This document shows, in pieces, positions 31,438 to 58,939 of a DNA stretch of 64,000 nucleotides. The notes under the pieces are model-generated. The model saw nothing but the letters and a program-made list of their open reading frames with translations. It was not told the origin of the DNA and searched no databases. The position numbers and the translations under genes were made by a program. The DNA is from an uncultured Gemmatimonadales bacterium (GTDB lineage: Bacteria > Gemmatimonadota > Gemmatimonadetes > Longimicrobiales > RSA9). Position 1 is the stretch's first letter. Every line of letters begins with the position of its first letter. The DNA is taken from contig CAWCRS010000009.1 in assembly GCA_963798085.1 (NCBI GenBank), forward strand, positions 160,001 through 224,000. The letters are read 5' to 3'.

Positions 31438-31453
31438 GCTTGTGCGCGCCGTT

Positions 31454-35028: not shown

Positions 35029-36015
35029 TCAGTTCGACTCGGCCCTGACCGACGTTTCCGGCGTGTGTCGCGGCCGCGAAGGTCGCAGCAGCTCGACCGC
35101 AGCGCCCAGGGCGGTTGCGGCCTGCGCCACCGCGATCAGGAATGCACAGCGCCACGCGGCCGGGTTCCACCAGCGGCGCAGCGGGTGCAGCACGAGTCGC
35201 ATGTAGAACCACGGACCGGGTACGGGATGCTGTACCCGGCGGGCGGCGTGGCGCTGGCGTACACGCAGCAGGCCGCGGCCATAGCGGAAGTGCTGGCGCA
35301 CGAAGCCGCTCAGGGTCAGCTCGTGGTAATGCACGACCGTCGCTTCAGGAACGAACTGCGCGTTACCACCAGACTCCTGCCAGCGCCAGCACAAGTCGTA
35401 ATCTTCGCCGGCTGCATCCGGGAATTCGGGACTGAAGCCGCCAATCGCGTGGAATCCGGCCGCCGGCAGACTCAGGTTGCTCGTGCTGAACAGTCGCGCA
35501 CCGTATCGGCGTGTATGCTCGCTGTACACGAAGTCCATGATCGCGTGCGTCGCAGCCGCGCCATCATTGGCGGGAACGCCGTTGCGCAGGCCGCCGCCGA
35601 GCAGTGCATCGGGCGTCGCCTCGAAACGCGTCTGCAGCCCTTGCAGCCAGTCGGGCGAGGGCTCGCAGTCATCGTCGGTAAAGGCGAGGTAGCGGCCGCT
35701 CGCGGCTTCCGCCGCGAGGTTGCGTGTCGAAGCGGGCCCCGTGTTAGCCTGCCGCACCACACGAACGGACACCGTCCGGTTCAGCTCGGACAGCAGATCG
35801 GCGTGCTGTATCGAAACGGGCATTGCACACCCATCGTCGCCCACGATCACTTCGAAGCTGGCGGGCGAAAGCGTCTGAGCCGCGAGCGCACGCAGACACG
35901 CGGCCAGTGCGTGGGGCCGGCTGAATGTGGGCACGATGGCCGAGAAGATGGGCGCGCCCGGCCGGCCTGCGGACCGTTGTCCGGTGGGCGCGAGAACAGT
36001 GCCGGTCCGCGTCAT
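35029..36015 (-). CDS. Glycosyltransferase family 2
   Basis: SAIVPTFSR, GDDG, GPASTRN, AFTDDDC, GGF, GEDYD. Confidence 0.9.
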   Translation of the reverse strand: MTRTGTVLAPTGQRSAGRPGAPIFSAIVPTFSRPHALAACLRALAAQTLSPASFEVIVGDDGCAMPVSIQHADLLSELNRTVSVRVVRQANTGPASTRNLAAEAASGRYLAFTDDDCEPSPDWLQGLQTRFEATPDALLGGGLRNGVPANDGAAATHAIMDFVYSEHTRRYGARLFSTSNLSLPAAGFHAIGGFSPEFPDAAGEDYDLCWRWQESGGNAQFVPEATVVHYHELTLSGFVRQHFRYGRGLLRVRQRHAARRVQHPVPGPWFYMRLVLHPLRRWWNPAAWRCAFLIAVAQAATALGAAVELLRPSRPRHTPETSVRAESN

Positions 36016-36412
36016 TTGCGGGCCCATCGCCACAGGTCCCGGTGCCGCCGTCGGTTCGCCATCGCCGTTCGCACCTCCGTAGCGGAGCCGCCGGTACGCG
36101 AGGGAGCCGCAGCCCGACGTTCGGGAGTAACGCAAGAATAATGGCACCGCAGCAAAGGGCAGGCCGATCGGGCCCGAGCAGGCGCCGGGCACGCCACGGT
36201 CGCCGTATGCAGGCGACGGCGCTGTTTCGGACCGGCCGGTGTCCCCCCGGGCGGCCTCGCCTGCCGGCCCTGGCGGGGCTCCACTGGAACCGGCCCGGGA
36301 ACCGGCCACAACGCGACCGTGGACGCAACCGTGTACTATTCCGGAGTTGGGCGCGTCACGATTTCAGTCGACCGGCGATCTCGAAGGTATCCGGCAACTC
36401 CCTGTTTGCAAG

Positions 36413-38616
36413 ATGAGCCCACTGTCACGGCGTGCGTTCTTCCAGATTGCCGGCACCGGCGGCGCCGTTCTGCTGCTCGGCGTCGTCGCGCGCGACCTGC
36501 ACATCGCGCGCATCACGGGGCGTACCGCGGCGGGGCTCGAGCGTTTCGATTTCGGCGCCTTCCTGCGCATGGATGAAAGCGGTCGCGTCACTGTCTGGAT
36601 CTCGCGTTCGGAGATGGGGCAGGGCGTCAGCACCGCGCTACCCATGCTCGTGGCAGAGGAACTGGAAATCGAGTGGTCCGCCGTGAGCATCGCGTTAGCG
36701 GACCTCGACGCCCGCCTGGGCGAGCAGGGCACGTCGGGCAGCTTCAGCATGCGCACGCTCTGGGAGCCTCTGCGCAAGGCGGGCGCGAGCGCGCGTCAGA
36801 TGCTGATTGCCGCCGCTGCGGCGCGCTGGAACGTTCCGGCGGCGGAGTGTCGCGCGGCAGCAGGGCGTGTGACGCATGAGCCCGGCCGCCGCGCCGCAAC
36901 CTACGGCGAGCTGGTGCGCGAAGCCGCACTGCTGCCGGTGCCGGAAGATGTGCCGCTGAAACCGCCGGAGCAGTATCGCCTGCTCGGTCGACGGCTGCCC
37001 CGCCAGGGAATGCGCGCCATCGTGCGCGGCGCTATGGAGTACGGCATCAATGTGCGCGTGCCCGGCATGCTGTTCGCCAGCGTCGAGCACCCGCCGCAGC
37101 ACGGCGGGCGCATTGCGCATCTCGATGATGCGGCCGCCCTCGCGCTGCGCGGTGTGCGCTCGGTCCTGGTGATCGAGCCGTCTTCGCCGCCGCAACATCG
37201 CTGGGGCGGCGTGGCGGTCGTGGCGGAGAGTACGTGGGCCGCGTTCCAGGGACGCCGGGCGCTGCGCATCGAGTGGACCGCTCCGGCCGGCAGTGCCGGC
37301 GACAGCAGCGCGCAGCTCGATGCGGCGCTGGACCGCGCGCTCCTCGAATCCGGCAGCGTGGTTCGCAGGGAAGGCGATGCCGCGGCTGTGCTCGCGCACC
37401 CGGCGCATTGTGTCGAGGCGACGTACGCACTGCCCTTCCTGGCGCACGCCACGATGGAGCCGATGAACTGCACCGCGCACGTGACCGGCGATCGCTGCGA
37501 GGTGTGGGCGCCGACGCAGTCGCCGGGCGGCGTTGCCGGCAATGTGTCGCGGGCGCTGGGCATTGCGCGCGACCATGTGACCGTGCACGTGGTGCGCATG
37601 GGTGGAGGTTTCGGGCGACGCAGTTTCCCCGACGTTGCCGTCGAAGCCGCCCTGATCTCCCGCCATGCCGACGTGCCGGTGCAGGTCATTGGACACGCGA
37701 GGATGACATGCGCAACGACTACTACCGGCCCGCGAGCCGTCACAGACTGCGGGCGGCAATCGACAATGCGGGTCGCGTGATCGCGTGGGAGCACCGCTTC
37801 GCTTCGACCGCCATTGCCGGGTTCACGGATCCGGGCGGCCCCGCCAATGTGATGGAGCTGGGCGGCGCCGCCGATGTGCCTTTCGCGATTCCCAACGTGC
37901 GCGTCGAGTATCGCGCGGTGCCGTCGGCCATGCCGCGCGGCTGGCTGCGCTCCGTCGAGCACGGGCCCAACGCCTTCGCCGTGCAATCGTTCGTGGGCGA
38001 GCTGGCGGCTGCGACGGGCCGCGATGCGCATGCGCTGTTAGTCGAGCTGATCGGTCCGCCCCGGCTGATCCCGCCGCCGCTGGACGATGGCGGCTACTCG
38101 CTGCCGCTCGACACGGCAAGACTGCGGCGCGTCCTCGATCTCGCCGCGCAACGTGCGGGCTGGGGCTCCACCGTTCCCGCCGGCACGGGCCGCGGCATCG
38201 CCGCGCACTGCTCGCGCAGCTACGCGGCTGCCGTGGTCGATGCCTCCGTCAGCGAATCCGGAATCGTGAAAGTGCAGCGCGTGGTGTGCGCCGTCGACTG
38301 CGGCTTCGTGATCGACCCCGGCGGCGTCGAAGCAAACCTCGAAGGCGGCATCGTGTTCGCGCTCTCGGCCGCACTGGGCGGGCTGATCACGGTGGCGAAC
38401 GGCGAGGTCGAGCAGGGCAACTTCGATCGCTATCCCGTGCTGCGCCTGGCAGACACGCCCTCCATTGAAGTGCACCTGACACCGAGCCAGGATCCGCCAC
38501 TGGGCGTGGGCGAAGCCGCGGTGCCGCCGGTCGCGCCCGCACTGGCCAACGCCATCTTCGCCGCCACCGGCCGGCGGGTCCGACGGCTGCCCATCCTGCC
38601 GGACGATCTGCGCTGA
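36413..38616 (+). CDS. Xanthine dehydrogenase family molybdopterin-binding subunit (IorB-like), Tat-exported; frameshift near 37690
   Basis: SRRAFF Tat motif, [48 protein letters not shown]. Confidence 0.9.
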
Positions 38617-39340: not shown

Positions 39341-42056
39341 GTGGCGGTGGGGGACATGGCGGCCGGGGCGGTGCCGGGCCGGGGTTGCGGACATCAGTGG
39401 CGCTGCTGGCTGTTCCGGAGTGTGCTGCGGCTCGCGCCGGGCCGGTTCCGCGACCGGTTCGGCGCCGCGATGGTGGCGGATTTCCGCGAGCAGCTGGCGG
39501 AATCGTGCGGTCCGGGCCGGCTGTCGTGGGTGCGGGTAACAGCGCGTTCGCTGGCGGATCTGCTGGGGGTGGTAGCGCGGGAGCGAATCGCGCCGGCGGT
39601 CCGCGCGGCCGGCGACCCCCCGATGGAGCGATGGGTGTGGCGCGGCTCGCGGGACGCGCTCGGGCCGGATCTGAGGATCGGGCTGCGGTCGCTCGCCCGC
39701 CGGCCGCGCTTTGTGGCGCTGGTGCTCGCCACGCTGGGTGTGGGGGTGGGTGCTAACACGGCGTTGTTCTCCATGGTGAACGCCGTGCTGCTGCGGCCGC
39801 TGCCGTTGCGCGCGCCGGACCGGCTGGTGTCGGTGTGGCAGGAGGACCTGAGCGCGGCGGCGGCAGCATGGCGGCGCCGGCGAGCCTCGATGCGTGGCGC
39901 GCGCAGGTCGCCTCGTTCGCGGCCGTGGGTGCATACGGGACTCGCCTGGGCTGGACCGTCGTGTCCGGCGGGGACGAGCCCAGGGCACTGAAGACTGCAT
40001 GGGTGACGGGCAATTTCCTTGATGTCCTGGGCGTGGCGGTGTTGCGGGGTCGCACGTTCCACGACGAGGAAACGTGGAGCGACGCGGCGCCCGTCGTGAT
40101 CGTGAGCGACGAGTACCGCGCGCGCCGTTTCGGGCCGGGTGTGGATGTGATCGGCAGGACGATCACGGTGGACGATGCGCAGCGTACGATCGTGGGGGTT
40201 CTGCCGGCGGGCCTGTCGTTCCCCGAGAGCGGGATCGCACTTTGGCTGCCGCTGGGCTGGGACCGGAGGCCGTGGGCGCGGCGTGGTTCCGGCAGGACCG
40301 CTTCGTGAGCGTGGTGGCGCGGCTGCGGCCGGGCGTGAGCCTCGAACGCGCGGCGTTGGAACTGTCGGTCGTGCGTCCGCCCGTCGGGGGGATCGCCTCC
40401 GTGCGCAATCGCATTGCGCCGCTGCAGGCGGCACTGGCCACTGAGGCGAGGACACCACTGCTGCTCCTCTTCGGATTCACGACGCTGCTGCTCGTATTGA
40501 CATGCGCGAATCTCGCCAACCTGATGCTGCTGCGGGCAGCAGAGAGGGCGCACGAGGTCGCGGTGCGCGCAGCGCTGGGTGCGGGGCGGCGTCGCATTCT
40601 GCGCGAGCTGCTGATCGAGACGCTTCTGCTGGCGGCGGGTGGCGGGATCGCGGCACTCGTGGTGGCGCGGATCTCGATCCGCCTGCTGCACCTTCTGCGC
40701 CCGCCTGACGCGTGGCGGCTGCAGGCGGTGCCGCTCGATAGTCACGTGTTAGTATGGGCCTGTGGGGCGACGCTGGGGTGCACCGTCTTCTTCGGGATGC
40801 TGCCTGCCTGGCGAGGCCTCCGTTCCGCGGCCGGTGCGGGCACCAGCCGCATGACGACGGGCCCGCAGGGCCGGCGGGTGGCGCGCATCCTCGTGGGCAG
40901 CGAGATCGCGCTCGCGCTCGTGCTCGCCACCGGCGCCACGCTGCTGCTGCGCAGCTTCGCGGCCCTGACCCGCGTCGACGCCGGCTTCCGGACGACCGAT
41001 CGCTTCGCCGCACAGCTCCTCGTTCCGCTGCGCTACAACTCGGATCCGCAGCAGCTCGCGCTCGCGGAACGCGTCACCGCGTCGCTGGCTGCGCTGCCGG
41101 GCGTGGCCGACGTCACGTACACGAGCCGGCTGCCGTTCACGGGCACGACGATCCTGATGGGCAACGTTGTGGCGGACCCGGCCGAGCCCGGCTCGGCGCC
41201 TGTGCCGGTGGGCGCGCGCACCATTGCGGACGACTATTTCCGCGTGCTGGATGTGCCGGTCGTCGAGGGGCGCGCGTTCTCGACGACCGACGGTCTCGAT
41301 ACCGAGCCAGTCGTCATTGTGAACGAGACGTTCCGGCGACATTACTTCCCGGCCGGACGCGCTGTGGGCGCGCGCATCACATGGGACAAGGATCCGGGCC
41401 CACGCTCCGACTGGTATCGCATCGTCGGCGTCGTGCCGGACCAGCTCCAGCTGGATCCGCGATCCGCCACGCGGCTGGAAGTATTCTTCGCGTTCCGGCA
41501 GAAGCCCGGCCGCTTCCTCAACATGCTGTTGCGGGTTCGTCCGGGTACGCGTTCGCTCGAGCCGGCGATTCGCGAGCGACTGTCCGCGGTCGACCCGGCG
41601 CTGGCCGTCTTTTCGTTCCGTTCGCTGGAATCCGTCCACGCGGAGACGCTGAGCCCCGACCGCTCGCTCACGCTGCTCACTGCGATCTTCGCCAGTGTCG
41701 CGCTCTTCCTCGCCGTGATCGGCATCCATGGCGCCACCGCCGAAACCGTCCGGCGGCGGACGAAAGAGATCGGCATCCGTGTGGCGCTGGGCGCGCAGTC
41801 CCGCGATATCGCCGGGCTCGCGCTGCGCGAGAGCGCACGGCTTGCGGGCATGGGCACGATCGCGGGCCTGGTCCTCGCTCTCGCCGGTTCCCGCATCCTG
41901 GCGAGTGTCCTCTTTGCGGTCGACGTGCACGACATCACGACCTGGATACTGGTGCCCACTGGACTTCTCATCACGGCCATTGCCGCGAGCGGCCGACCCG
42001 CGTTGCAGGCCGCGCGCATTGACCCCCTCGACGCGCTGGGCCGCGACGCAACCTGA
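39341..42056 (+). CDS. ADOP-family duplicated ABC permease (MacB/FtsX domains; frameshifts near 39880 and 40275)
   Basis: DLRIGLRSL, LGVGVGANTALFSMVNAVLLRPLP, CANLANL, EVAVRAALGA, RRTKEIGIRVALGA, AARIDP. Confidence 0.88.
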
Positions 42057-42141: not shown

Positions 42142-42756
42142 CTATGCCGGTGCCGTCGGCCGCAGGTCCAGCACTTCGCCGTTGATGTACCCGGCATCGG
42201 GCGACAGCAGGAAACACGCTGTTTGAACGGCGGCTTCGGCAGCCGCCTCGCCATCCTGTGGAACGATCACGGCATTGCAGGTGATGCTGCGCCGGCCGTA
42301 CTCGATGGCGATGGCGCGGGCCAGGCAGACCAGGGCCTCACACAACGATGCGGGGATGGTGGCGGGCTCGCGCGGGCAGCGCACGAACACCAGCAGCCGG
42401 CCGCCTTCACCGCCGGCCATGAACTCGTCGACCACGCGGCGGGCCACGAGGAACGCGGCGCGCAGCGGCGAGGTGAGCGCGGCATGCCACGCGGCAGTGC
42501 AGCCGCCGGTGAGTGATACATCCTTCGCGGACGTGTCGGCGAGGAGGATCATGCCGGCGGGCGTTCCCATCCCGGCGAGCACGTTGTCGAGCGCGTCGTC
42601 GACATTCTGCTCTTCCGACAGATCACGCGTGTGGCGCAGGTTTTCGGTGCGCCAGCCTTCGCGCGCGAGCGCCTCGGTCAACGCGCAGCCCAGGCCGCCG
42701 GCAGCGCCGGTCACGTCTGCGACGACCAGACCGCCGGGCGAAGCCTGCAGCATCAT
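42142..42756 (-). CDS. SDR-fold protein lacking the YxxxK catalytic motif
   Basis: VTGAAGGLG, AIEYGRRSITCNAV, FLLSPDAGYINGEVL; no YxxxK; ATGA-coupled to fabD. Confidence 0.75.
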   Translation of the reverse strand: MMLQASPGGLVVADVTGAAGGLGCALTEALAREGWRTENLRHTRDLSEEQNVDDALDNVLAGMGTPAGMILLADTSAKDVSLTGGCTAAWHAALTSPLRAAFLVARRVVDEFMAGGEGGRLLVFVRCPREPATIPASLCEALVCLARAIAIEYGRRSITCNAVIVPQDGEAAAEAAVQTACFLLSPDAGYINGEVLDLRPTAPA

Positions 42757-43679
42757 GCGACGCGCACAGCGCTGACGCTGGCGTCAGCGAACGTGGAGCA
42801 TGCCGCGGCGGGGAACTGTCGCCGCACGCAGCGCAGCAGCACATCGCCGGGCCCGCACTGAATGAACGTCGCTACGCCCAGCGCGCGCACGGCCTCAATG
42901 CTTTCCTGGAAGAGCACCGGCGCCGTCAGCTGGCGCAGAATCGATGCGCGCACGGCACGCGCCGTGGTGAGCGGGTGCGCGGTCACATTGTCGATGACGA
43001 CCGCCTGCGGATCGGCGATCGGGCAGCGCGCGACGACGGGCGCGAGCGCATCGGCCGCGGGGCGCAGCAGTTCCGAGTGCGTGGCGATGGACACCGCCAG
43101 CGGTACCACGCCGAAGCCCGCGGCATCGAGTGCGTCGCCTACCGCGTCGACGGCGGGACGCGTGCCCGAGATGACCGTCTGGTCCGGAGCGTTGTGGCAG
43201 GCCACGCCGACCACGCCGAGAGCCTGTCCCTGGCGGCACGCCGCGTACACGGCCGCGCGGTCGGCTCCCAGAATAGCGGCCATGGCGCCGCCTTCGGGCG
43301 GCATGGCGGCGGCCATTGCTCTTGCCCTTGCCTGCAGCAGCTCGAGCGCCGGCTCGAACGCAATGGCGCCGGCCGCCACCAGTGCTGCGAATTGCCCGAC
43401 GCTGTGACCGATGAGCATGCGCGGCTCGATGCCCTGCGCGCGCAGCCGGAGCGCGTGCAGCACGCCGATGGTGAGGAGCGCAGGCTGGGCTAACTCCGTG
43501 TTTAGCAGTGCTTCGGCCGGTCCTTCGCGCATCAGCCGGGAGAGCGGCCGACTCAGGCGGGCATCCGCGGCCGCCAGCAGATCCTGCGCAAAAGGCGCGC
43601 TTGCCAGCGCGTCATCGAGCATGCCTGCGGCCTGACTGCCCTGGCCGGCGAAGAGCAGCGCCACGCCGTGCGGAGTCAC
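42753..43679 (-). CDS. fabD: ACP S-malonyltransferase (FabD-like)
   Basis: FAGQGSQ, TELAQPAL, GHSVG, QTVISG, QLTAPV.F. Confidence 0.92.
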   Translation of the reverse strand: MTPHGVALLFAGQGSQAAGMLDDALASAPFAQDLLAAADARLSRPLSRLMREGPAEALLNTELAQPALLTIGVLHALRLRAQGIEPRMLIGHSVGQFAALVAAGAIAFEPALELLQARARAMAAAMPPEGGAMAAILGADRAAVYAACRQGQALGVVGVACHNAPDQTVISGTRPAVDAVGDALDAAGFGVVPLAVSIATHSELLRPAADALAPVVARCPIADPQAVVIDNVTAHPLTTARAVRASILRQLTAPVLFQESIEAVRALGVATFIQCGPGDVLLRCVRRQFPAAACSTFADASVSAVRVA

Positions 43680-44956
43680 GATGCCCGTCCCACCACGAGC
43701 GATGTGCTCAGCCCGCCGAAGCCGAAGGAGTTGGACAGGGCAATGTCAATGGGCTGTTCGCGCGCGTGGTTGGGCACGAAATCGAGATCCAGCGCCGGAT
43801 CGGGGTCATCGAGGTTAATGGTCGGATGCAGCACGCCCTGCTCGAGTTGCATGACGGTGGCGACCAGCTCGACAATGCCCGCGGCGCTCAGGCAGTGACC
43901 GGTCAGGGACTTTGTCGAATTGATAGCGAGGTTCCATGCGTGGCGGCCGAACACCTCCTTGAGCGAATCCACCTCGGTGGCATCACCCAGCGGCGTGGAG
44001 GCGGCGTGTGCGTTCACATAGTCGACCTGATCGGGCGTCACGCGCGCGTCGTCCAGCGCGCCGCGAATGGCGCGCACCTGTCCGGCAATGCGCGGTTTGG
44101 GCAGCCGCGAAGCGTCCGACGCGGCGGCGCCGCCCAGCATGTGCGCCCGCAGATGGGCGCCGCGCGCCCGCGCGCTGGCTTCCGTTTCCAGCACTACGGC
44201 CGCGCCCGCGTGACTGGGGACGAAGCCCTCACGGCGCATGTCGAAGGGACGGCTGGCGCGGTTCGGCTCGTCGTTGAAGGAACGGTACGAGATGGCATCG
44301 AGCATGGCCCACGCGTGCAGCGTCACGGGGTCGACATCGCCCAGCGCGCCGGTCACTAACACGGCATCAGCACGGCCCAGGCGCAGCATGTCCATGGCCG
44401 TGAGCATGGCCACGTTGCCGCTGGCGCAGGCGTTGCCCGCCAGCAGGCTGGGTCCGCCCAGGCCGAGGATCTCGCAGACAATGGCCACGACGTCGGTGTC
44501 CATTGCCAGCACGCCGTACAGCGGGTCGATGAACTCGGGCTCCTCCTGGAAGGCGAGGTGGTTCCGGTAGGAGAAGCCCGCGACGATGTTGTTGCCGCCC
44601 GTGACATGACCCACGCGCTCGAGGTTCACCGAGCCATCGAGGATGCCGGCATCCACCGCGGCCTGGCAGGCGGCCGAGGCCGTCACCCGCCCGGAGAGCG
44701 TGCAGGCGCGCAACGAGCGCCGTGCGCGCTCGATCAGCTGCGATGGATAGCAGGCGCCCGCGCAATCCAGATGCGCAGTGAGGTCGAAGTCACTCAGGTC
44801 GCCGAGCAGCAGTGCGTACTCGTCGTCGCGCACGTTGCGGCGCCGCGAGATGCCCGACCTGCCCGCCACCAGCGAGGCGAAGAACTGGTCCGGGGTCTGC
44901 CCGATCGTGGACACGATCCCAATGCCGGTAATGACGATTCCCCGATCATGCTTCAC
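43676..44956 (-). CDS. Discrete beta-ketoacyl-ACP synthase, PksF-like but with catalytic Cys
   Basis: VITGIG, MDTD, GNACASG, SRPFD..REGFV, NAHAASTPLGD, KSLTGH, SNSFGFGG. Confidence 0.9.
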   Translation of the reverse strand: MKHDRGIVITGIGIVSTIGQTPDQFFASLVAGRSGISRRRNVRDDEYALLLGDLSDFDLTAHLDCAGACYPSQLIERARRSLRACTLSGRVTASAACQAAVDAGILDGSVNLERVGHVTGGNNIVAGFSYRNHLAFQEEPEFIDPLYGVLAMDTDVVAIVCEILGLGGPSLLAGNACASGNVAMLTAMDMLRLGRADAVLVTGALGDVDPVTLHAWAMLDAISYRSFNDEPNRASRPFDMRREGFVPSHAGAAVVLETEASARARGAHLRAHMLGGAAASDASRLPKPRIAGQVRAIRGALDDARVTPDQVDYVNAHAASTPLGDATEVDSLKEVFGRHAWNLAINSTKSLTGHCLSAAGIVELVATVMQLEQGVLHPTINLDDPDPALDLDFVPNHAREQPIDIALSNSFGFGGLSTSLVVGRAS

Positions 44957-45030
44957 GGCTCATACCTCCTCTGCCACGGCGAGGAACAGGACTCAGTCAG
45001 CGGACGTCACGCGCAATGCCCAGGATGTAC

Positions 45031-45729
45031 TCACCATCCGTCCGTCTCAGCGTGCGCAGTCTCACGTACAACTGTGTTAGTGGTCCGCCCCGGCCAGGTT
45101 CGTCGCGCCCGCACGATGGCGCGGCCCGCCTCTGCATCGAATGACTCCAGCTCGACCACGTCGGGCCCGGCTGCGGGCGGCAGGCGGAGTGCCTTCCATG
45201 CGGCTTCCTTCGCCACCCACGCGCACAATCCCGCGCGCGATTCAGCGAGGCCGGACGACAGGATCAGGCGCTGCTCCCGGCGCGAGAACGCGTAGGGGCT
45301 GTGCGCGACGTCGGTCTCACGCGCCCGCTCGAGATCAATGCCAACGCGCGTGGTCGTGGGTGCACGCTTCCCGGTGCCCACCTCGCCGCGCCAGGCCAGT
45401 GCCACGGCAAGGCGTGCCGAATGGGCAATCGCCACGCGCATCCCGACCGCCCCCGCGACTTCGGGAGCGCCGTGCGCGTCGTTGCGCACCCATGCGTGCG
45501 CTGACGCAATGTCGCCCAGTCGCGCGATGGCGAGCTGTGCGGCGCGGCGCCCGAGAGCGAACTGGCGCCGCCGGCCGGCTTCATGCGCGGCAGCGGCGGC
45601 CCGCTCGTTCTCGTGCAATGGCGCTTCCAGCGCAGCGAGCGTGCGGCCGGCATCGGCGCAGAGGGCGATCGCGAACCCGGAGCTGCGTCGTCGCCTGTCA
45701 GGCAGGGCGTCAGCCACAGGCGTGGACAT
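45031..45729 (-). CDS. 4'-phosphopantetheinyl transferase (Sfp-like)
   Basis: FALGR, HGAP, VAIAHS, VGIDLE, WVAKEAAWKAL. Confidence 0.88.
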   Translation of the reverse strand: MSTPVADALPDRRRRSSGFAIALCADAGRTLAALEAPLHENERAAAAAHEAGRRRQFALGRRAAQLAIARLGDIASAHAWVRNDAHGAPEVAGAVGMRVAIAHSARLAVALAWRGEVGTGKRAPTTTRVGIDLERARETDVAHSPYAFSRREQRLILSSGLAESRAGLCAWVAKEAAWKALRLPPAAGPDVVELESFDAEAGRAIVRARRTWPGRTTNTVVRETAHAETDGW

Positions 45730-45735
45730 TCGCGA

Positions 45736-45997
45736 TCACACCGGCTGGGTGGTGACTTCGGGTGCGTTCTCCAGCAGTGTCAGCAGGTCGCCCAGGTTCT
45801 TCGCCTGCGCGAGGTCCGTGCGCTTGATCTTGCGACGACACTGCTTCATGCTGCGCGACACGACCTCCACCATTCTCGAGCGAGTCCGCGCCGAAGTCGC
45901 GCATGGAGTGCTGCTCGGTGATCTCCTTGCCGCGGGCACCCTCGATGATCGCCTGGATGTTGCCCTTGATCACCTCGAAGATCGCTTCTCTGGTCAC
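45736..45997 (-). CDS. Acyl carrier protein (one extra base near 45874)
   Basis: agaggagg RBS; VTREAIFEVIKGNI...RDFGADSLE, then MVEVVSRSMKQ...NLGDLLTLLE in the next frame. Confidence 0.85.
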
Positions 45998-46013
45998 AGT
46001 CGCCTCCTCTGTC

Positions 46014-46565
46014 TCAGGTTGCGGGAACGTACGCCGAAAGCGCAGTCGCCGAGCACACCTCGCCGCGCTGCAGACACTGTCCGACCACGGTGTAGAACAG
46101 CCCATCCTCGGCGCCGGCGACGATGATCTCGACCGGTGCGCCGGGCGTGATGGGGCGCACGAAGCGCGCGCCCAGGATGTGCGTAGCCGCGACTTCCACC
46201 AGCGGCTCATCGCGCTGCAGTGCGAGGAGCAGACAGCCCGCCTGTGCCACGGCCTCCGCCTGCAGCACGCCCGGCCACAGCGGCCTTCCGGGGAAATGGC
46301 CCGCTAACACCGCAGCAGCACGGGCAATGTCGTAGCAGGCCACCATCAGGCCCGCTTCGCGGTCGAGCGCGGTCACCTGATCCACGAGCAGAAACGGATC
46401 GCGGTGCGGCAGCAGACGTTCGATGCCGGCGAGGTCGAGCAGCGGCAGCGCTGCTTCCGTTGCCGGCGGCACCAGCCGCGAGCGGCTGGCCTCGCGCAGC
46501 AGTGCTGCCACCGCATCCGGATCGAGCGGCGTCACGAGGCGGGCGGACGAGACGAGAGCCGTCAC
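46014..46565 (-). CDS. 3-hydroxyacyl-ACP dehydratase (FabZ-like)
   Basis: LLPHRDPFLLVD, GHFPGRPLWPGVLQAEAVAQ, RFVRPITPG. Confidence 0.9.
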   Translation of the reverse strand: MTALVSSARLVTPLDPDAVAALLREASRSRLVPPATEAALPLLDLAGIERLLPHRDPFLLVDQVTALDREAGLMVACYDIARAAAVLAGHFPGRPLWPGVLQAEAVAQAGCLLLALQRDEPLVEVAATHILGARFVRPITPGAPVEIIVAGAEDGLFYTVVGQCLQRGEVCSATALSAYVPAT

Positions 46566-47392
46566 GGTGTCGTCGCCTGCAATGGGGCGGCGGATTCCGT
46601 GCGTGCCTTGTCGAACAGGAAATGCGTGGGCCCGAGCAGCGACCAGCCTTCGTCCACGACAATGACCTGTCCTGTGACCGCGTCCATCAGACCGGAGCAC
46701 AGCGCCACGCATACGCCTGCCACCCGCCGCGGATCGAGCAGCATTTCCGACGCGTCGCGCGCCAGCGCATCGACCGCGGCATCGCCCAGTACGGCGCGCA
46801 GGCTGGCGGTGTCCATGAAGCCCGGCCGCACGGCATTCACGCACACGCCCTCGGAGCGCAGCCGGACAGCGAGGTAGCGGACCATCGTCTCGAGTGTGGC
46901 CTTGGCCGCGCCGGCGAGGTCGTAGCCGGGATGGCAGACGATGCCGCCGTCGCTGCTCACCGCGATCACATGGCGAGGCATTCGGGGCAGCACGTCGCGG
47001 GCCAGCTGGACCAGCTCGACCAGCGGCCACGATGAATAGCGCAGCGACAGCTCGAGCGCACCGCGCCGCAGATCGTCCAGCTCGCCGGTCACCTTGGCAA
47101 ACGCGACATTACTCACGATCGCGTCGAGACGGCCGTAGCGGCGCGCGATGCCCTGCAGCAACTCGCGGGTCGAGTCGGCATCGCTGGCATCGCACTCGAG
47201 GATCCAGGGCGGAAGGCCGCCCTCGGCGCCGAATTCGGCGAGCAGCTCATCCTCGTCCGCGCTGCCCCAGCGGTGCGTCAGCACGACCTGCGCGCCACGG
47301 CGGGCGAACTCGAGGCCCACGGCCTTGCCGAAGCCGCGCGTGCCGCCCGTGATCAGCACCACCTGGTACATCGCGCCATCGTGCATCGTCAT
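46562..47392 (-). CDS. SDR, enoyl-ACP reductase-like (FabL/FabI type)
   Basis: ITGGTRGFG, Y-x6-K motif YDLAGAAK followed by ATLETMVRYLA, GQVIVVDEG. Confidence 0.8.
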   Translation of the reverse strand: MTMHDGAMYQVVLITGGTRGFGKAVGLEFARRGAQVVLTHRWGSADEDELLAEFGAEGGLPPWILECDASDADSTRELLQGIARRYGRLDAIVSNVAFAKVTGELDDLRRGALELSLRYSSWPLVELVQLARDVLPRMPRHVIAVSSDGGIVCHPGYDLAGAAKATLETMVRYLAVRLRSEGVCVNAVRPGFMDTASLRAVLGDAAVDALARDASEMLLDPRRVAGVCVALCSGLMDAVTGQVIVVDEGWSLLGPTHFLFDKARTESAAPLQATTP

Positions 47393-48156
47393 TCCTCCGC
47401 CGCCCCGGTGGGTGCACCGTACACCGCCGCAATGCGGGACTGGATTCTGGTCATGCCCATGAGCGTGATCTGCGCGCGGCGCTCCTGCTCCGCCGCGCCC
47501 AGCACGGCGTCACGACGGCGTTGCAGTATCAGCCGCTTGAGTGCGACCAGCGTCTCGCGCGGCACATCGGCGATCTCGCCCGCGATCTCGAGCGCGCGCG
47601 ATCGGACATGCGTGCGCGGCAGCACTGCGTGCGCGAGTGGCGTGCCCGCGCGCGCCAGCTCGCGTCCCTTCATGAGCCGGCCTGTGAACAGCATCTCGCG
47701 CGCGAGCGGCTCGCCCATTGCCTCGGCCAGCAGCACGCTCGAGCCCATGCCGGGCGTGAAGCCGAGCGACACGAAGTTGGCGCCGTAGAGACTCTCCTCC
47801 GCGAGCAGCGTGATGTCGCAGCAGAGCGCCATGGCGAGGCCGCCGCCCAGCGCGTGGCCGGCGGCGACTGCGATCAGGGGCAGCTCGATCCCGAACAGCA
47901 CACGCGGTATCTCGGCGACCAGCGCGGGCACCGCGCTCTGTGCATCGGGTCCCACCAGCAGCTCGCGGCTGCCGCCCGCCGAGAAGTAGGTCGCGCCGCC
48001 TTCGAGCAGGATCACGCGCGTGTCCGGCTCGGCCGCTGCCGCGTGCAGCACAGCGGCCAGCTCGGCGGGCGTCCAGTCGAAGTGCGACTCCGCATTCGTC
48101 GACACCGCGACCGAGAGCACGCCCGGCGAGAGGCTGCGCAGCACGGGCATCGTCAT
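47389..48156 (-). CDS. Enoyl-CoA hydratase-like decarboxylase (ECH2, PksI-like)
   Basis: YFSAGGSRELL, GHALGGG, ESLYGANFVSLGFTPGMG, EMLFTG. Confidence 0.85.
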   Translation of the reverse strand: MTMPVLRSLSPGVLSVAVSTNAESHFDWTPAELAAVLHAAAAEPDTRVILLEGGATYFSAGGSRELLVGPDAQSAVPALVAEIPRVLFGIELPLIAVAAGHALGGGLAMALCCDITLLAEESLYGANFVSLGFTPGMGSSVLLAEAMGEPLAREMLFTGRLMKGRELARAGTPLAHAVLPRTHVRSRALEIAGEIADVPRETLVALKRLILQRRRDAVLGAAEQERRAQITLMGMTRIQSRIAAVYGAPTGAAEE

Positions 48157-48950
48157 GCGACGCACTGCAGCAGCCCGCCCGTCGCCAGCAGCGCCTGCCC
48201 GTTGAAGTGACGCGACGCATCCGACGCCAGGAACAGCACGGTGCCGGCCATCTCCGCGGCCGAGCCCGCGCGCCGCTGCGGGCAGTACTCGAGCCAGAAG
48301 GCACGGGTGCGCGGGTTCAGGCCCTGCGCCAGCTCCGTGTCGACATAACCGGCGATTACCATGTTGGCGCGGATCCGGTCGCCGGCGAACTCCCGGGCAA
48401 TGGCCTGCGTCATGCCCAGCAGAGCGCCCTTGCTGGCGCCGTAGCTGCTGTTGTTCGCAGTGCCCTGCTGCGCGATCGAGCCGACCGTGACGAGGGTCGC
48501 CGGCCGGCCGGCGGCGCGCGCACCGCACACCAGCTCGCGCGCCACCAGCAGACAGCCTGTCAGGTTGGTGGCGACGACACGGTCCCATTCCGCGACGCTG
48601 TGCGAGACCAGCAGCTCGGCAGCGCTCGTGCCGGCGTTGTTGATCGCCACATCGACGGGCCCGAACCGGGTCCGCGCAGTCTCGAACAGCCGCGCCACAT
48701 CGTCGGCGTTCGACACATCCGCCTGCAGCGTGCACACGCGGCCTTCGCCCACGAGTGTGGCCGCCGCAGCTTCGACCTGAGAACCGCCGCGTTCGATCTG
48801 GCGCGCGCAGCACATCACGCGTGCACCCCGGCTCGCCGCTTCCAGCACAATGGCCCGGCCGATGCCGCGCGTGCCACCGGTCACGATGACAACGCGGTCT
48901 TCCAGCGCGCGCGCAGCCTGCGCGTGCCGCACGGGCGCGGTCGCGCTCAC
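48153..48950 (-). CDS. SDR, 3-oxoacyl-ACP reductase-like (FabG type)
   Basis: VTGGTRGIG, INNAG, VGS, YGASK, GYVDT. Confidence 0.85.
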   Translation of the reverse strand: MSATAPVRHAQAARALEDRVVIVTGGTRGIGRAIVLEAASRGARVMCCARQIERGGSQVEAAAATLVGEGRVCTLQADVSNADDVARLFETARTRFGPVDVAINNAGTSAAELLVSHSVAEWDRVVATNLTGCLLVARELVCGARAAGRPATLVTVGSIAQQGTANNSSYGASKGALLGMTQAIAREFAGDRIRANMVIAGYVDTELAQGLNPRTRAFWLEYCPQRRAGSAAEMAGTVLFLASDASRHFNGQALLATGGLLQCVA

Positions 48951-49699
48951 GCGGTCGCTCCCGCCAGCCAGGGCGCATCGCCCGCGACGAACCGCGCCAT
49001 CCGGTCACGCGTCGCTTCACTAACGCCGAGCTTGATCGCCTCGGCGCGCGCCGCGCTAGCGTACGGCGAGTCGAACAGACAGGTATCCGCCACCACGCGC
49101 TTCACGGCGGCAATCGAGCGGGCGTCCATGCGGCGGAAACGCGCCGCGTACCTTGCGGCGGCGGCGTCGAGGTCGTCGACAACCTCATCGACGAGGCCAA
49201 TGCGCAGTGCGGCTTCCGCATCGAGCGTGGGCCCGCCCATGGCGAGCCGTCGCGCGTGCGCGCTGCTGACGCGCGTACGCAGCGACACGAACGCGAACAC
49301 GGGAATGAGTCCAATGAGGGCTTCGGGCAGCGCGAAGACCGCGCGTCGTGTGGCCAGCACCACGTCAGCGGCGGCGGCCACGCCCAGGCCTCCGCCCATC
49401 GCGGGGCCATCCACGAGTGCCAGCACGGGCCGCGCACAGCGACCGATCGCGGTCACCAGCTCGCCATAGCGGTCGAGGGCTTCACCCAGTGTGGCTGCCG
49501 CCGCCGTTTCGAGCAGCGGCGCGATGGTCTCGAGCGGCAGCCCCCGGCAGAACTCGCCGTCAGCGCCTTCGAGCGTCACTACGCTCGGCGCTTGCGCACC
49601 GCGCAACGCCGCTGACACGCGTGCTACGAGGTCGGGGCTCAGCCGTGGCTGGCCCTCGCCATCGCGCAGCACGAGGCGCAGCCGGTCAGCTGCGGACAT
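48947..49699 (-). CDS. Enoyl-CoA hydratase-like dehydratase (ECH1, PksH-like)
   Basis: VTLEG...FCRG, GGGLGVAAAADVV, FALPEALIGLIP, GLVDEV. Confidence 0.82.
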   Translation of the reverse strand: MSAADRLRLVLRDGEGQPRLSPDLVARVSAALRGAQAPSVVTLEGADGEFCRGLPLETIAPLLETAAAATLGEALDRYGELVTAIGRCARPVLALVDGPAMGGGLGVAAAADVVLATRRAVFALPEALIGLIPVFAFVSLRTRVSSAHARRLAMGGPTLDAEAALRIGLVDEVVDDLDAAAARYAARFRRMDARSIAAVKRVVADTCLFDSPYASAARAEAIKLGVSEATRDRMARFVAGDAPWLAGATA

Positions 49700-50912
49700 A
49701 GTGACGGAAGAAGTTGTCGACACGATCCAGGACGAGCCGGTCGCGTGACTCATACGCTTCGTGGTAGCGCCACGCCGCCACGGAGCGGTCCGGAACAAAG
49801 CTGTCGGCAGTAAGGCTGCCGTACACACCGGCGGCCGCCGCATCCAGCTCCGCGACCGAGACTTCGTGACGCGCAGCCAGCGCTGCGCCGACGCGGCGCT
49901 TCGCCATGATGGCACTCGCTGTCGGCGCCACCGTGCCGCTGAGCACTTCCGCCAATGCGCCCGATCCGTAGGAGAACATGCCAATGCGCTCGCCGGCATC
50001 GCCTTCCGCGAGACTGTCGAGAATGCCGATCAGCGAGAGGAACACGCAGCCGGAGTAGGTATTGCCCACCAGTCGCGTGTAGGTGAGCGAAGGCCTGACC
50101 ATGCGCTCGAAGCTGGCGGACACATCGGCATCGGACGCGTCGGGCTTGTCACCCTGCATCAGCGCGCGATGCGCCTGCTGCACCAGCCAGACCAGCGGCG
50201 TGTGGAACGCCATGTAGCGGAAATGCTGCTCGAAGCGCACCGGTCCCGCCTGGTTGCGATACTGCTCCCACGCCAGGTCGAGCATGTCGAGGTACGCCGA
50301 GACGGAACGCAGCGGATCGCCTGCTTCCTGCAACGGGCGAGGCCGGCGCAGGTCACGCACGTCATCCGCCGCGCAGCCTTCCACGGGATCGAGATTCAGA
50401 ACACGCGGGTCGCTCGACACCACGATCGCCACAGACCCCTCGCCCGACGTCATCTCCGCCGGGTGATGCGGGCGGCGTCCGGCCAGATCCGTGGTGACCA
50501 CGAGCGCCCGGCGGCCGCGCGCAATGCCCGAACGCACCCATGCGGCGGCCAGCTGGAGCGCAGTGACACCCGCATAACACGCGTTTTTCAGTTCGACATG
50601 CCGGCACGACGTGGACAGGCCGAGTCCCTGATGGACGTGCGTGCTGATGGGAATGCCGTAGTCCAGCGCCGTTTCGGTTGCGACCAGCAGCAGGCCGAAG
50701 CTTTCGCGGCCGGCCGCGCGCACCAGCGGATCCGCCGAGTTGACCGCCAGCGTCACGGGGTCCTCGAAAGGCGGCACCACCGACCGGCGCACGAACTGCG
50801 CGTGCCCACGCTCGCGTTCCGTCAGCCCGCGCTCGCGCGCGATCGCGTCATAACTGATGGTCAGCGGACCCGTGTACAGATTGATGTCGTCGATTCCGAC
50901 CGCACCGATCAT
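49686..50912 (-). CDS. HMG-CoA synthase-like protein (PksG/HCS beta-branching type)
   Basis: VGID, EDPVTLAVN, ATETALD, ELKNACY, FHTP, VGN, FSYGSG. Confidence 0.9.
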   Translation of the reverse strand: MIGAVGIDDINLYTGPLTISYDAIARERGLTERERGHAQFVRRSVVPPFEDPVTLAVNSADPLVRAAGRESFGLLLVATETALDYGIPISTHVHQGLGLSTSCRHVELKNACYAGVTALQLAAAWVRSGIARGRRALVVTTDLAGRRPHHPAEMTSGEGSVAIVVSSDPRVLNLDPVEGCAADDVRDLRRPRPLQEAGDPLRSVSAYLDMLDLAWEQYRNQAGPVRFEQHFRYMAFHTPLVWLVQQAHRALMQGDKPDASDADVSASFERMVRPSLTYTRLVGNTYSGCVFLSLIGILDSLAEGDAGERIGMFSYGSGALAEVLSGTVAPTASAIMAKRRVGAALAARHEVSVAELDAAAAGVYGSLTADSFVPDRSVAAWRYHEAYESRDRLVLDRVDNFFRHYVRS

Positions 50913-56343: not shown

Positions 56344-56802
56344 ATGGCTACCTACGCCCTCCGCATCAACGGCCGCACGCAGCAGGTCGACGTCGAGCCG
56401 GATACGCCGCTCCTCTGGGTCGTGCGTGATGCACTCGGCCTCACTGGCACCAAGTACGGCTGCGGCATTGGCCAGTGCGGCGCGTGTACCGTGCACATCG
56501 ATGGCCAGCCCGTGCGCTCCTGCCGCACGGCCGTCTCGACGGTGGGCAACAAGGCGATCACCACGATCGAAGGCCTCTCCGCGGACGCCAGCCATCCGAT
56601 CCAGAAAGCATGGATCGCGGAGGAAGTGCCGCAGTGCGGCTACTGCCAGTCGGGCCAGATCATGGCGGCGGCCGCACTGCTCGCGTCCAACAGGAGTCCC
56701 TCGGACGCCGAGATCGACACTGCCATGAACCGCAACATCTGCCGCTGCGGCACCTACGATCGCATCCGGCGCGCCATCCATCGCGCAGCGAAGGAGGGCT
56801 GA
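56344..56802 (+). CDS. (2Fe-2S)-binding subunit (IorA-like)
   Basis: [29 protein letters not shown]. Confidence 0.95.
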
Positions 56803-56804
56803 CC

Positions 56805-58939
56805 ATGAGCCGCAATACCAGCATGGACCGCCGCGACTTCATCCGGCTGGGCACGCTCGCGGGCAGCGGCCTGCTGCTCGGCGTCTACGTTCCGGGCGGC
56901 ACCCGCCGCTGGCTGGGCGACGACGCCACCGCCGCCACCTCGCTCCAGCCTAACGCCTTCGTACAGGTCGACACGGACGGCACCGTGACCATCTGGTCGG
57001 CACGCTCCGACATGGGGCAGGGCGTACGCACCGCCATGCCCATGATCGTGGCCGATGAGCTGGATGCGGACTGGAGCACCGTGCACATCCGCCAGGCCGA
57101 TGCGCACCCCACGCAGTACGGCCGCATGATGACGGTGGGCAGCTCGAGCGTGCGCGGCAACGCCTGGATGGCGCTGCGCCAGGCCGGGCGCCACCGCGCG
57201 CCAGATGCTGGTCGCCGCCGCAGCCGCGCGCTGGGGTGTGAGTGCGGCCGAGTGCCGCACCGATAACAGTCGTGTTATCCACGACGCCTCGCACCGCTCG
57301 CTCGGCTACGGCGAAGTCGCAGCAGCGGCCGCCGCACTGCCCGTACCTGCAGAGCCTCGCCTCAAGGACCCGAAGGACTTCAAGCTCATCGGCAAACGCG
57401 TGCCGCTGGTCGACACGAAAGAGAAAGTCAGCGGGCAGGCGAAGTACGGCATCGACGCGCGCACACCGGGCATGCTGTTCGCCACGGTCGTGCATCCGCC
57501 CGTCTTCGGCGACACCGTGAAGTCCTTCGACGCCAGCGCCGCGAAGGCAGTGCGCGGCGTGCGCCATGTCGTCCAGATCTCACAGGGCGTGGCCGTTGTC
57601 GGCGATAACACCTGGGCCGCGCTCAAGGGCGCGAAGGCGCTGACTGTCGAGTGGCAGAGCGGCGGCTTCGCCATGAGCAGTGACGACATTTTCGCCAGCC
57701 TGGCGCAGCTCGCGCAGAAGCCCGGCGCCGAAGCCCACAAGTCGGGCGATGCCGATGCCGGTCTCGCGCGCGCCGCTCACAAGGTCGACGCCGTCTACAA
57801 GGCGCCGTACCTGGCGCACGCGACGATGGAGCCGATGAACTGCACCGCCGATGTGCGCGCCGGATCACTGCGAGATCTGGGCGCCCACGCAGAATCCGCA
57901 GGGCACCCAGAGCGCGGCCGCGCAGATCACGGGCCTGCCTGTCGAGAAGGTCACGGTGCACGTGCCGTACCTGGGCTGCGGCTGGGGCCGCCGTTCGCGC
58001 ACCGACTTCGTGCAGGACGCGGTGGAAGTGTCGAAGCAGATCGGCGCGCCGGTGCAGGTGCTCTGGACGCGCGAAGAGGATATGCGACACGACCAGTACC
58101 GTCCCGCCGCCCACGTCGAGTTCCACGGTGGCGTCGATGCCGCCGGCAGGGTCAGCGCACTGCGCGCCCGCATTGCCACGCCGCCCATCGCAGGCGGCCG
58201 CGGCCGCGTGGACGGCCCCGCCGTCGATGCCATTGCTAACACGCCGTATGCAATCCCGGACCTGGCCGTCGAGTACTGCCAGCCGGACATTGACGTGCCC
58301 GTCGGCTACTGGCGCTCCGTGGGACCGTCGCAGAACGCGTTCTTCCTCGAGAGCTTCATGGATGAGCTGGCCCACGCCGCCAACCGTGATCCGCTCGACG
58401 TGCGACTCGAGCTGCTCGCCAATGCGCCCCGCCTGCGCAACGTGCTGCAGCTGGCGGCCCAGCGAGCGGACTGGAAGACGCCGCCGCCCGCCGGTCACGC
58501 CCGCGGCATCGGCCTGGCCGAGCTGGATGGCTCCCATGTCGCGGAGATCGCAGAAGTCTCGCTGCAGAACGGCCGCGTGCGCGTGCACAAGGTCTGGTGC
58601 GTCGCCGACTGCGGCCGCGTCATGCACCCGGGCATCGTCGAAGCCCAGCTCATGGGTTCCATCATCGGTGGCCTGACCGCCGCGCTCTACGGCGAGATCA
58701 CCATTGAGAAGGGCGCCGCCAAGCAGGGCAACTTCAACGACTACCGCATGGTGCGCATCAGCGAAGCGCCGGAGTACGACATTCACATCGTGGCCAGCGA
58801 CGAGGAGCCGGGCGGCGCGGGAGAGCCGGGCGTGCCCCAGATCGCACCGGCCGTGGCTAACGCGCTGTTCAAGCTCACCGGCACGCGCATCCGGCAGCTG
58901 CCCATCAGTCAGCAGGCGCTGGCCTCGACACAGCAGTAG
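56805..58939 (+). CDS. Xanthine dehydrogenase family molybdopterin-binding subunit (IorB-like), Tat-exported; frameshifts near 57187 and 57861
   Basis: DRRDFI Tat motif, [35 protein letters not shown]. Confidence 0.9.

Follow-up and report, generated by a model that had tools for sequence, protein, structure and literature searches.

A stand-alone operon that unites a complete beta-branching cassette with discrete fatty-acid-type enzymes lies in a 64,000-nucleotide stretch of the genome of an uncultured Gemmatimonadales bacterium (assembly GCA_963798085.1, contig CAWCRS010000009.1, positions 160,001 to 224,000), which was analysed as a whole, is referred to here as the window and is numbered from its own first letter. 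By common teaching, beta-branching is an add-on to modular polyketide synthases (PKSs); here it occurs within a small type II synthase whose ketosynthase (KS) is condensing-competent by sequence. We propose that the operon is probably, though far from certainly, a portable and self-contained synthase in which a methyl-branched chain is built on acyl carrier protein (ACP) and handed to an acyl acceptor. It belongs to a cassette family that is real, conserved and uncharacterised. The main addition made here is that the PksF-like KS retains its catalytic cysteine throughout that family, while the acceptor genes that lie beside the cassettes are the main clue to the fate of the product. The autonomy of the operon had been proposed in an earlier note on this DNA and stands; that note missed the acyl-acceptor neighbours in other genomes as well as the loss of a histidine from one of the branching enzymes, ECH2.

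The operon comprises 11 genes between positions 42142 and 50912, all on the minus strand, and Pfam and NCBIfam back the name of every one. In operon order they are:

49686..50912, minus strand: 3-hydroxy-3-methylglutaryl-ACP (HMG-ACP) synthase (HCS), 408 aa (Pfam/NCBIfam, PDB matches, alignment)
48947..49699, minus strand: ECH1 dehydratase, 250 aa (best match PRK07112)
48153..48950, minus strand: FabG-like ketoreductase (KR), TGxxxGIG and S-YxxxK both intact
47389..48156, minus strand: ECH2 decarboxylase, 255 aa (best match PRK07110; top PDB matches PksI and CurF)
46562..47392, minus strand: FabL/FabI-type enoyl reductase (ER), Y-x6-K
46014..46565, minus strand: FabZ-like dehydratase (DH), GHFP...PGV...E
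45736..45997, minus strand: single ACP of AcpK-like ancestry (weak PRK07117 match; +1 frameshift near 45875)
45031..45729, minus strand: Sfp-type phosphopantetheinyl transferase (PPTase), with a probable indel close to the 3' end (alternative frame to about 44997)
43676..44956, minus strand: PksF-like KS (best match PRK07103, 390 bits against a cut-off of 445; FabF fold)
42753..43679, minus strand: FabD-like malonyl transferase (GHSVG, Arg118, His201)
42142..42756, minus strand: degenerate second KR-type short-chain dehydrogenase/reductase (SDR), YxxxK missing

The profile scan thus bore out the 11 co-oriented genes and their order as first described, together with the flanks, an FtsX/MacB (ADOP-type) permease gene and a gene with the metallo-beta-lactamase fold. 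Features beyond that first description are the frameshifted ACP gene, a KS with its catalytic residues in place and the missing YxxxK of the last SDR. Six of the ten junctions are 4-nt ATGA/GTGA overlaps, in line with the claim that such overlaps join most of the genes; one is a 14-nt overlap and three are gaps of 16, 6 and 74 nt. A scan of the operon for promoters and terminators gave no promoter-like site and three terminator-like sites against 2.5 expected. The discrete ACP, FabD, condensing-type KS (Cys-His-His), KR, DH and ER make up the component set of a type II fatty acid synthase (FAS). The degenerate last SDR, which has an intact FabG-like orthologue in actinomycete loci, is possibly a structural partner.

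The HCS is of the polyketide (HMGS) type: CurD, VirC and PksG are its top PDB matches, ranking above mevalonate-type enzymes, and its catalytic Glu80, Cys112, His237 and Asn284 are unchanged across 36 aligned homologues. The motif 'KNAC' in place of the family's 'KHAC' was discarded as a clue, since CurD and VirC carry Gln at that position.

Ketosynthase, carrier protein and integrity of the operon

The KSs of known HCS cassettes are condensation-incompetent (PMC11522927), and HCS-associated type II KSs are classed as decarboxylating in NaPDoS2 (PMC9582728). The operon KS keeps Cys177-His317-His354 and does not show the Cys-to-Ser change of a condensation-incompetent KS0. Across the family, cysteine occupies this position in 105 of 107 rows, the two exceptions (L029 and L031) being type I PKS loci and one of the cysteine rows being a type I-like KS, as against none of eight control KSs, seven of which have serine. 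The controls were taken from plasmid-borne HCS cassettes, six of them beside an annotated modular PKS, one beside a nonribosomal peptide synthetase and one unannotated. Because the catalytic cysteine is kept, the family KS is probably able to lengthen chains in addition to decarboxylating. A quick tree places the KSs of the two cassette layouts described below in two supported clades, separate from FabF (one row of which, L010, comes from genome G026) and from the serine group. The predicted structure of the operon KS has the FabF fold (pLDDT 94.5; TM about 0.9 in a fold search), and a profile-library search with it returned matches dominated by multi-module PKSs.

A canonical HCS works with one ACP as donor and another as acceptor (PMC11522927); the operon encodes a single ACP. 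None of 94 family ACPs carries the arginine present in all seven control donor ACPs, so that the family ACP is not a typical donor-only carrier, and none of the 94 has the Trp flag of the GxDSxxxxxW motif. By analogy, one ACP could feasibly serve in both roles, because CurD accepts its donor ACP as an acceptor at 3-fold lower efficiency (PMC11522927).

Among sister loci L011 (in a Gemmatimonadaceae metagenome-assembled genome (MAG), HCS 83% identical) is the closest, and it has the identical eleven-gene set between different flanks. Compared with its intact ACP gene, that of the window has one extra base directly after the GADSLE motif. In the same assembly the housekeeping fabF, the genes on both of its sides and the GNAT gene beside the host's serine palmitoyltransferase (SPT)-like gene are also frameshifted; the extra base in the ACP gene is therefore probably an assembly error, and assembly errors are the most likely source of both this frameshift and the probable 3' indel in the PPTase gene. 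Contigs from one soil sample match parts of the operon at about 99%, the frameshift site lying outside what public contigs cover. Many genes of the assembly look split by indels (window positions 30469-36309, 36239-38616, 39341-42056 and 56475-58939; G000:C7:1693000-1698300 elsewhere in the host genome), including those for glycosyltransferases, molybdopterin oxidoreductases, the ADOP permease, FabF with its neighbours and FabH, and pseudogene calls are accordingly unsafe in this genome. Relative to L011, dN/dS is 0.07-0.37 for all ten genes tested (0.19 for ECH2), rough values given that 52-67% of synonymous sites have changed; they point to an operon that is maintained under purifying selection.

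Distribution, layouts and relatives of the cassette

The host genome (6.2 Mb, 90% complete) contains three full KS domains, each within an open frame of 363-462 aa, four weak partial KS matches in frames of 401-434 aa, three matches to the ACP profile PF00550 in frames of at most 346 aa and one HCS gene. Two of the three KSs are on another contig, and the one that was scanned is FabF-like. This whole-genome search, which the earlier note had called for, thus found no modular KS or ACP, and hence no modular PKS, in the 90% complete assembly; there is no pair of KS and chain-length factor (KS-CLF) either, the operon having a single KS. KSs were also sought in ten other cassette genomes, mostly incomplete MAGs: six lack any KS whose open frame reaches 700 aa, the L011 genome has one KS in a 733-aa frame, and three carry type I PKSs elsewhere.

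The cassette is patchily distributed. No KS with more than 40% identity occurs in 40 relatives, and no HCS of the operon's clade in 400 genomes drawn from the host's phylum (tallies that include the unpublished-marked genomes G015, G016, G019 and G026); for this reason a role in making bulk iso-fatty acids fits poorly. In a search of the host for a branched-chain keto-acid dehydrogenase, three of four E1 pieces scanned fell below the pyruvate dehydrogenase cut-offs and no assignment was made.

Family loci were collected by HCS alignment, as the 80 best among 209 matches in genomes and the 80 best among at least 434 in metagenomes, and their neighbours were called with a simple gene caller that misses some genes (for example at L023, L120, L124 and L155). 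Among these 160 loci, 70 hold a complete cassette, with KS, KR, ER, ACP and ECH2 adjoining HCS, and 66 of the 70 also have DH; many of the incomplete loci are truncated by the end of a contig, and type I PKS loci account for nine. The 46 of these 70 that come from genomes belong to Myxococcota, Actinomycetota, Acidobacteriota, Pseudomonadota, Gemmatimonadota, Chloroflexota, Chlamydiota, Armatimonadota, Verrucomicrobiota, Nitrospinota, Vulcanimicrobiota and Planctomycetota. Layout A (26 loci, including L138, a truncated B) has the gene order of the window operon or a permutation of it, and layout B (44 loci) runs FabD-DH-KS-KR-HCS-ECH1-ECH2-ER-ER/ACP. FabD is missing from many layout-A loci, DH from 4 of the 26, and both KR and DH from L091, L094 and L115; two ER paralogues are frequent in layout B, compared with one ER in the operon. 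In the DNA retrieved around each locus, no type I PKS gene accompanies any of the 44 layout-B cassettes. Taken with the synteny of 70 of 160 loci, the six of ten other cassette genomes without a long KS frame and the retained KS cysteine, this leaves the autonomous, PKS-independent working of the cassette, as first claimed, well supported.

Several loci vary on these layouts. L035 and L099 each have two cysteine-bearing cassette KS paralogues, and the HCS of L043 is at least 90% identical to that of Kibdelosporangium. At seven cyanobacterial-type loci with an acyltransferase in cis (cis-AT; L037, L041, L058, L076, L077, L082 and L089), a cysteine-bearing KS-AT didomain lies upstream of an HCS that is sister to layout B, and the ACP is of the stand-alone cassette's family. 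Immediately upstream of type I PKS genes (KS-AT...KS) are the layout-A cassettes of L021, L024, L095, L124 and L026, of which L021, L095 and L026 lack DH; such cassettes may supply a branched starter unit.

HCS cassettes are known from trans-AT and cis-AT PKSs: the bacillaene (AcpK and PksF/G/H/I), curacin (CurB-F) and virginiamycin (VirA-E) systems and the thiomarinol plasmid pTML1. The operon shares with them HCS, ECH1, ECH2, an AcpK-like ACP and a PksF-family KS, and its HCS and ECH2 find their closest structures there. It differs in the cysteine of its KS, in an ACP without donor arginine or Trp flag, in the discrete KR, DH, ER, FabD and PPTase interleaved with the cassette and in a host without a modular PKS; the HCSs and KSs of the family also form clades of their own. 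Ishigamide represents the highly reducing type II PKSs. With these, and with the fogacin system of Actinoplanes missouriensis, the operon has in common discrete enzymes acting on a free ACP; unlike them it has no KS-CLF, and nearly all family members have one KS per locus. Fogacin provides a recorded case of beta-alkylation by a type II PKS (PMC11350588), and type II systems are also mentioned in PMC11522927. Unlike the operon, the fogacin system uses an LnmK-type acyltransferase/decarboxylase for a propionyl donor. Seven orphan HCSs have been noted near type II PKSs (bioRxiv 10.1101/509463) and might include members of the family. No account of the cassette gene set was found in the literature searched, in which coverage of subscription journals is thin.

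Probable acyl acceptors encoded beside the cassettes

The commonest non-core neighbour of the family, at 56 of 160 loci, is a pyridoxal-phosphate-dependent oxoamine synthase of the SPT/BioF type. Among complete loci it accompanies 39 of 44 layout-B and 5 of 26 layout-A cassettes (44 of 70 overall) and, after clustering at 90% HCS identity, 31 of 35 layout-B and 3 of 20 layout-A clusters. Four actinomycete examples tested score best as SPT, none meeting the cut-off. In a quick tree the cassette-linked synthases fall into several separate clades, which suggests that they were recruited repeatedly.

Dedicated acyl supply to such enzymes has precedents: bacterial SPTs prefer a dedicated acyl-ACP, and in Caulobacter the AasR/AcpR/SPT system feeds acyl-ACP from a specialised carrier or synthase to an oxoamine synthase (PMC9386255), as the neighbours of the family suggest. 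In Pseudomonas fluorescens the iterative PKS SgaA likewise supplies the oxoamine synthase SgaB, and PKS-derived sphingolipids arise from an iterative type I PKS together with an oxoamine synthase (PMC12134224). Both the Caulobacter and the Pseudomonas system do without beta-branching genes and without discrete enzymes of type II, and unlike them the window operon has no oxoamine synthase.

Other neighbours also recall sphingolipid synthesis. Caulobacter needs an epimerase and an N-acyltransferase for dihydroceramide (PMC9386255). Beside the cassette in Nannocystaceae stand an epimerase gene, at 14 loci, and a GNAT gene, at 8, that are homologous to the flanks of the host's SPT-like gene (four of four queries each; 29-37% identity for the epimerase, 38-42% for the GNAT), from which we infer CerR-like and bCerS-like functions, the Atlas naming the GNAT generically. 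Nannocystis punicea has two oxoamine synthase matches at E<=1e-50, one of them cassette-linked, and the family GNAT elsewhere in its genome. A gene for a fatty acid hydroxylase is present as well at four Acidobacteria-type loci, and the SDR downstream of the L156 cassette scores best, below the cut-off, as 3-ketodihydrosphingosine reductase (KdsR). KDSR identity was rejected for the neighbouring SDRs, being the best match for one of nine tested, and a PDB search with the L040 SDR found no KDSR.

Layout-A loci without a synthase often adjoin another kind of acceptor gene: MBOAT (9 loci), FeeM-like GNAT (3), LpxL-like (L114) and PlsC-like (L119) acyltransferases, DegT with a PseH-like GNAT (L015 and L093), DegT alone (2 loci) or type I PKS. 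The MBOAT gene lies directly upstream of HCS (L022, L104, L105, L107, L109, L111-L113 and L166); at six of these loci an unannotated gene of about 345 aa precedes it, and sulfatase and TPR genes are nearby. Acylation of a surface polymer by the branched chain is possible there.

Five actinomycete loci (L014, L016, L017, L020 and L043) combine the cassette with an SPT-like gene. At L016, L020 and L043 a PfaB/C-like gene lies upstream of this pair and a KS-AT gene lies downstream of it, the latter fused to an oxoamine synthase domain in the manner of SgaAB at L016, the one locus scanned; the arrangement resembles an island that holds several synthases of long-chain bases.

The host genome itself has an epimerase-SPT-GNAT trio (L185; G000:C3:541900-545900), unlinked to the operon, and a second, divergent oxoamine synthase (L186; G000:C7:259393-264584) beside a zinc-dehydrogenase-like gene and a pair of oxidoreductase genes in divergent orientation. 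An SPT-like gene is present in 29 of the 40 relatives, all of which lack the cassette (again counting G015, G016, G019 and G026), which suggests that ceramide synthesis is common in the host's group.

Proposed pathway, alternatives and significance

In the scheme that we propose, the PPTase would prime the ACP, FabD would load malonate and the cysteine-retaining KS would condense, with decarboxylation of malonyl-ACP to the acetyl donor as a side activity. KR, DH and ER would carry out ordinary reduction cycles; in one or a few cycles HCS would place acetate on the beta-keto-acyl-ACP, after which dehydration by ECH1, decarboxylation by ECH2 and reduction by ER would leave a beta-methyl branch, with both carrier roles filled by a single type of ACP. 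Across the family, an acceptor encoded nearby would receive the chain, mostly an SPT/BioF-type oxoamine synthase that would yield a sphingoid-like base, elsewhere MBOAT, FeeM-like GNAT, LpxL-/PlsC-like acyltransferase, sugar N-acyltransferase or type I PKS. Since no acceptor gene is linked to the window operon, transfer there would have to act in trans, with the host SPT or glycerolipid or lipid A acyltransferases as candidates.

The sequence does not reveal how long the chain is or whether its methyl pattern is iso, internal or phytanoyl-like, and the predicted KS structure carries no information on length: both isovaleryl-ACP for iso-fatty acids and phytanoyl-like chains are chemically possible, and the genes do not choose between them. 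A single branching round on acetoacetyl-ACP would mirror the alternative isovaleryl-CoA biosynthesis (AIB) pathway of Myxococcus xanthus (MvaS, LiuC, AibA/B and AibC), which leads from HMG through methylglutaconyl and dimethylacrylyl to isovaleryl (PMC5389471). The AIB route differs in being CoA-bound, in its decarboxylase and reductase and in having no elongation enzymes, whereas the operon HCS groups with ACP-type enzymes and its decarboxylase is a crotonase-type ECH2, not of the AibA/B CoA-transferase type.

Several observations weigh against a self-contained synthase that serves an acceptor. No family member has a known product, and no linked acyl acceptor is seen beside the cassettes of the window, L011 or L028. 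The host trio was rejected as evidence of the product, an SPT-like gene being so widespread among cassette-free relatives as to be unspecific. All 28 layout-B oxoamine synthases tested score best as BioF or BioF/Kbl-like, none meeting the cut-off, so that serine specificity is not demonstrated, and a bCerS-like GNAT was found in two of five cassette genomes searched and in none of the other three. The pocket loop of the KS is KS0-like (G-x-N), one residue shorter than the GSGIGG of FabF, which leaves long-chain elongation unassured; the ACP gene is frameshifted in the present assembly; and 6 of 26 layout-A loci, plus L124 by tblastn, stand beside type I PKS genes. Finally, the sublineage of the operon has lost residues of both branching enzymes. 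Its ECH2 has Gln229 in place of the catalytic His230 of PksI, and its ECH1 keeps Glu126 but has Pro for Asp55 (Glu137 and Asp68 in PksH); the PksI H230A and PksH D68A mutants are impaired (PMC7501309).

The probabilities that we attach to this synthase and to its rivals overlap and do not sum to one. The last of these points raises an unlikely alternative, that the operon's sublineage leaves the branch without decarboxylation or protonates it differently, giving a carboxymethyl-branched, hydroxylated or beta,gamma-unsaturated acyl chain. Glutamine is found in the operon ECH2 and all of its ten closest full-length homologues (11 of 11, 58-100% identity), the ECH1 proline is confined to the operon and L011 (Asp in 83 of 98 family rows), and known beta-branching systems allow decarboxylation to be omitted and either alkene regiochemistry (PMC11350588). 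The glutamine recurs in other lineages, however (20 of 96 homologues overall; 8 of 113 family rows, against His in 104), and may therefore be a tolerated substitution; the oxyanion-hole motifs of ECH2 are intact, its dN/dS is low, and PksI H230A retains some activity on a CoA substrate (PMC7501309). The branch chemistry of the sublineage may thus differ from that of the family.

An add-on to the host FAS, which we consider improbable, would have HCS act on beta-ketoacyl-AcpP, with the cluster ACP as acetyl donor only and the cluster KS, KR, DH and ER processing branched intermediates beyond the reach of FabF and FabI. The separate carriers of canonical HCSs favour it (PMC11522927), as do the AcpK-like character of the operon's sole ACP and a cluster with neither FabH nor thioesterase; the frequent absence of FabD from layout A implies that loading, if nothing more, falls to the host FAS at those loci. 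The missing donor arginine speaks against it, as does a dedicated PPTase, KR, DH and ER set that accompanies the cassette across phyla. Far less probable still is an ordinary trans-acting cassette whose modular PKS is absent from the assembly, or a decaying relic. The incompleteness of the genome, the 733-aa KS frame in the sister genome, the layout-A cassettes that adjoin type I PKS genes and the ACP frameshift leave it some room, which is narrowed by the retained KS cysteine, the KR, DH and ER companions, HCS and KS clades separate from those of trans-AT cassettes, the lack of a modular KS in the host and 6 of 10 other cassette genomes, purifying selection on all ten genes tested and the fact that essential genes are likewise frameshifted in this assembly.

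The remaining alternative, on which we would place little weight, is a product-specific form of the self-contained synthase: strictly alternating branching and reduction would yield a 3,7,11,15-type polymethyl, phytanoyl-like acyl-ACP without isopentenyl or dimethylallyl diphosphate (IPP/DMAPP) and, after condensation with serine, an isoprenoid-like sphingoid base. A tetramethyl sphingoid base, aplidiasphingosine, is known from a tunicate. The enzymes for both types of cycle serve one ACP, the KS is condensing-competent by sequence, and the two ER paralogues of many layout-B loci are what two types of enoyl substrate would require. Against this, no programming element for strict alternation was found, the window operon carries one ER, the layout-A loci without DH or without KR and DH suit short products, and the literature searched held no such bacterial lipid.

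An HCS tree rooted on mevalonate-type synthases resolves a trans-AT group, layout A, and layout B together with the cyanobacterial-type cis-AT loci. A single clade of layouts A and B is rejected (p-AU 0.002), in quick trees with an unresolved basal split and for a grouping picked after an earlier tree. It is possible on this evidence that the stand-alone state is ancestral and that the cassettes of modular PKSs would have arisen from it by loss of the KS cysteine. We regard as doubtful the bolder combination, in which the family both provides an IPP-independent, ACP-bound route to polymethyl chains for sphingoid or envelope lipids and descends from a stand-alone, cysteine-bearing KS system ancestral to modular beta-branching cassettes.

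The cassette spans about ten phyla and occurs in cultured strains (Kibdelosporangium aridum and K. banguiense, Nannocystis punicea and N. pusilla, and Actinomadura sp. K4S16), so that the question is testable now. If the self-contained synthase that we propose is real, it would be an undescribed source of methyl-branched lipids and a possible origin of soil and sediment biomarker lipids now attributed to leucine-derived starters or isoprenoids. As a small kit that can be transferred, it would also lend itself to making branched acyl chains, and it would be a candidate for the evolutionary connection of PKS beta-branching with fatty acid synthesis.

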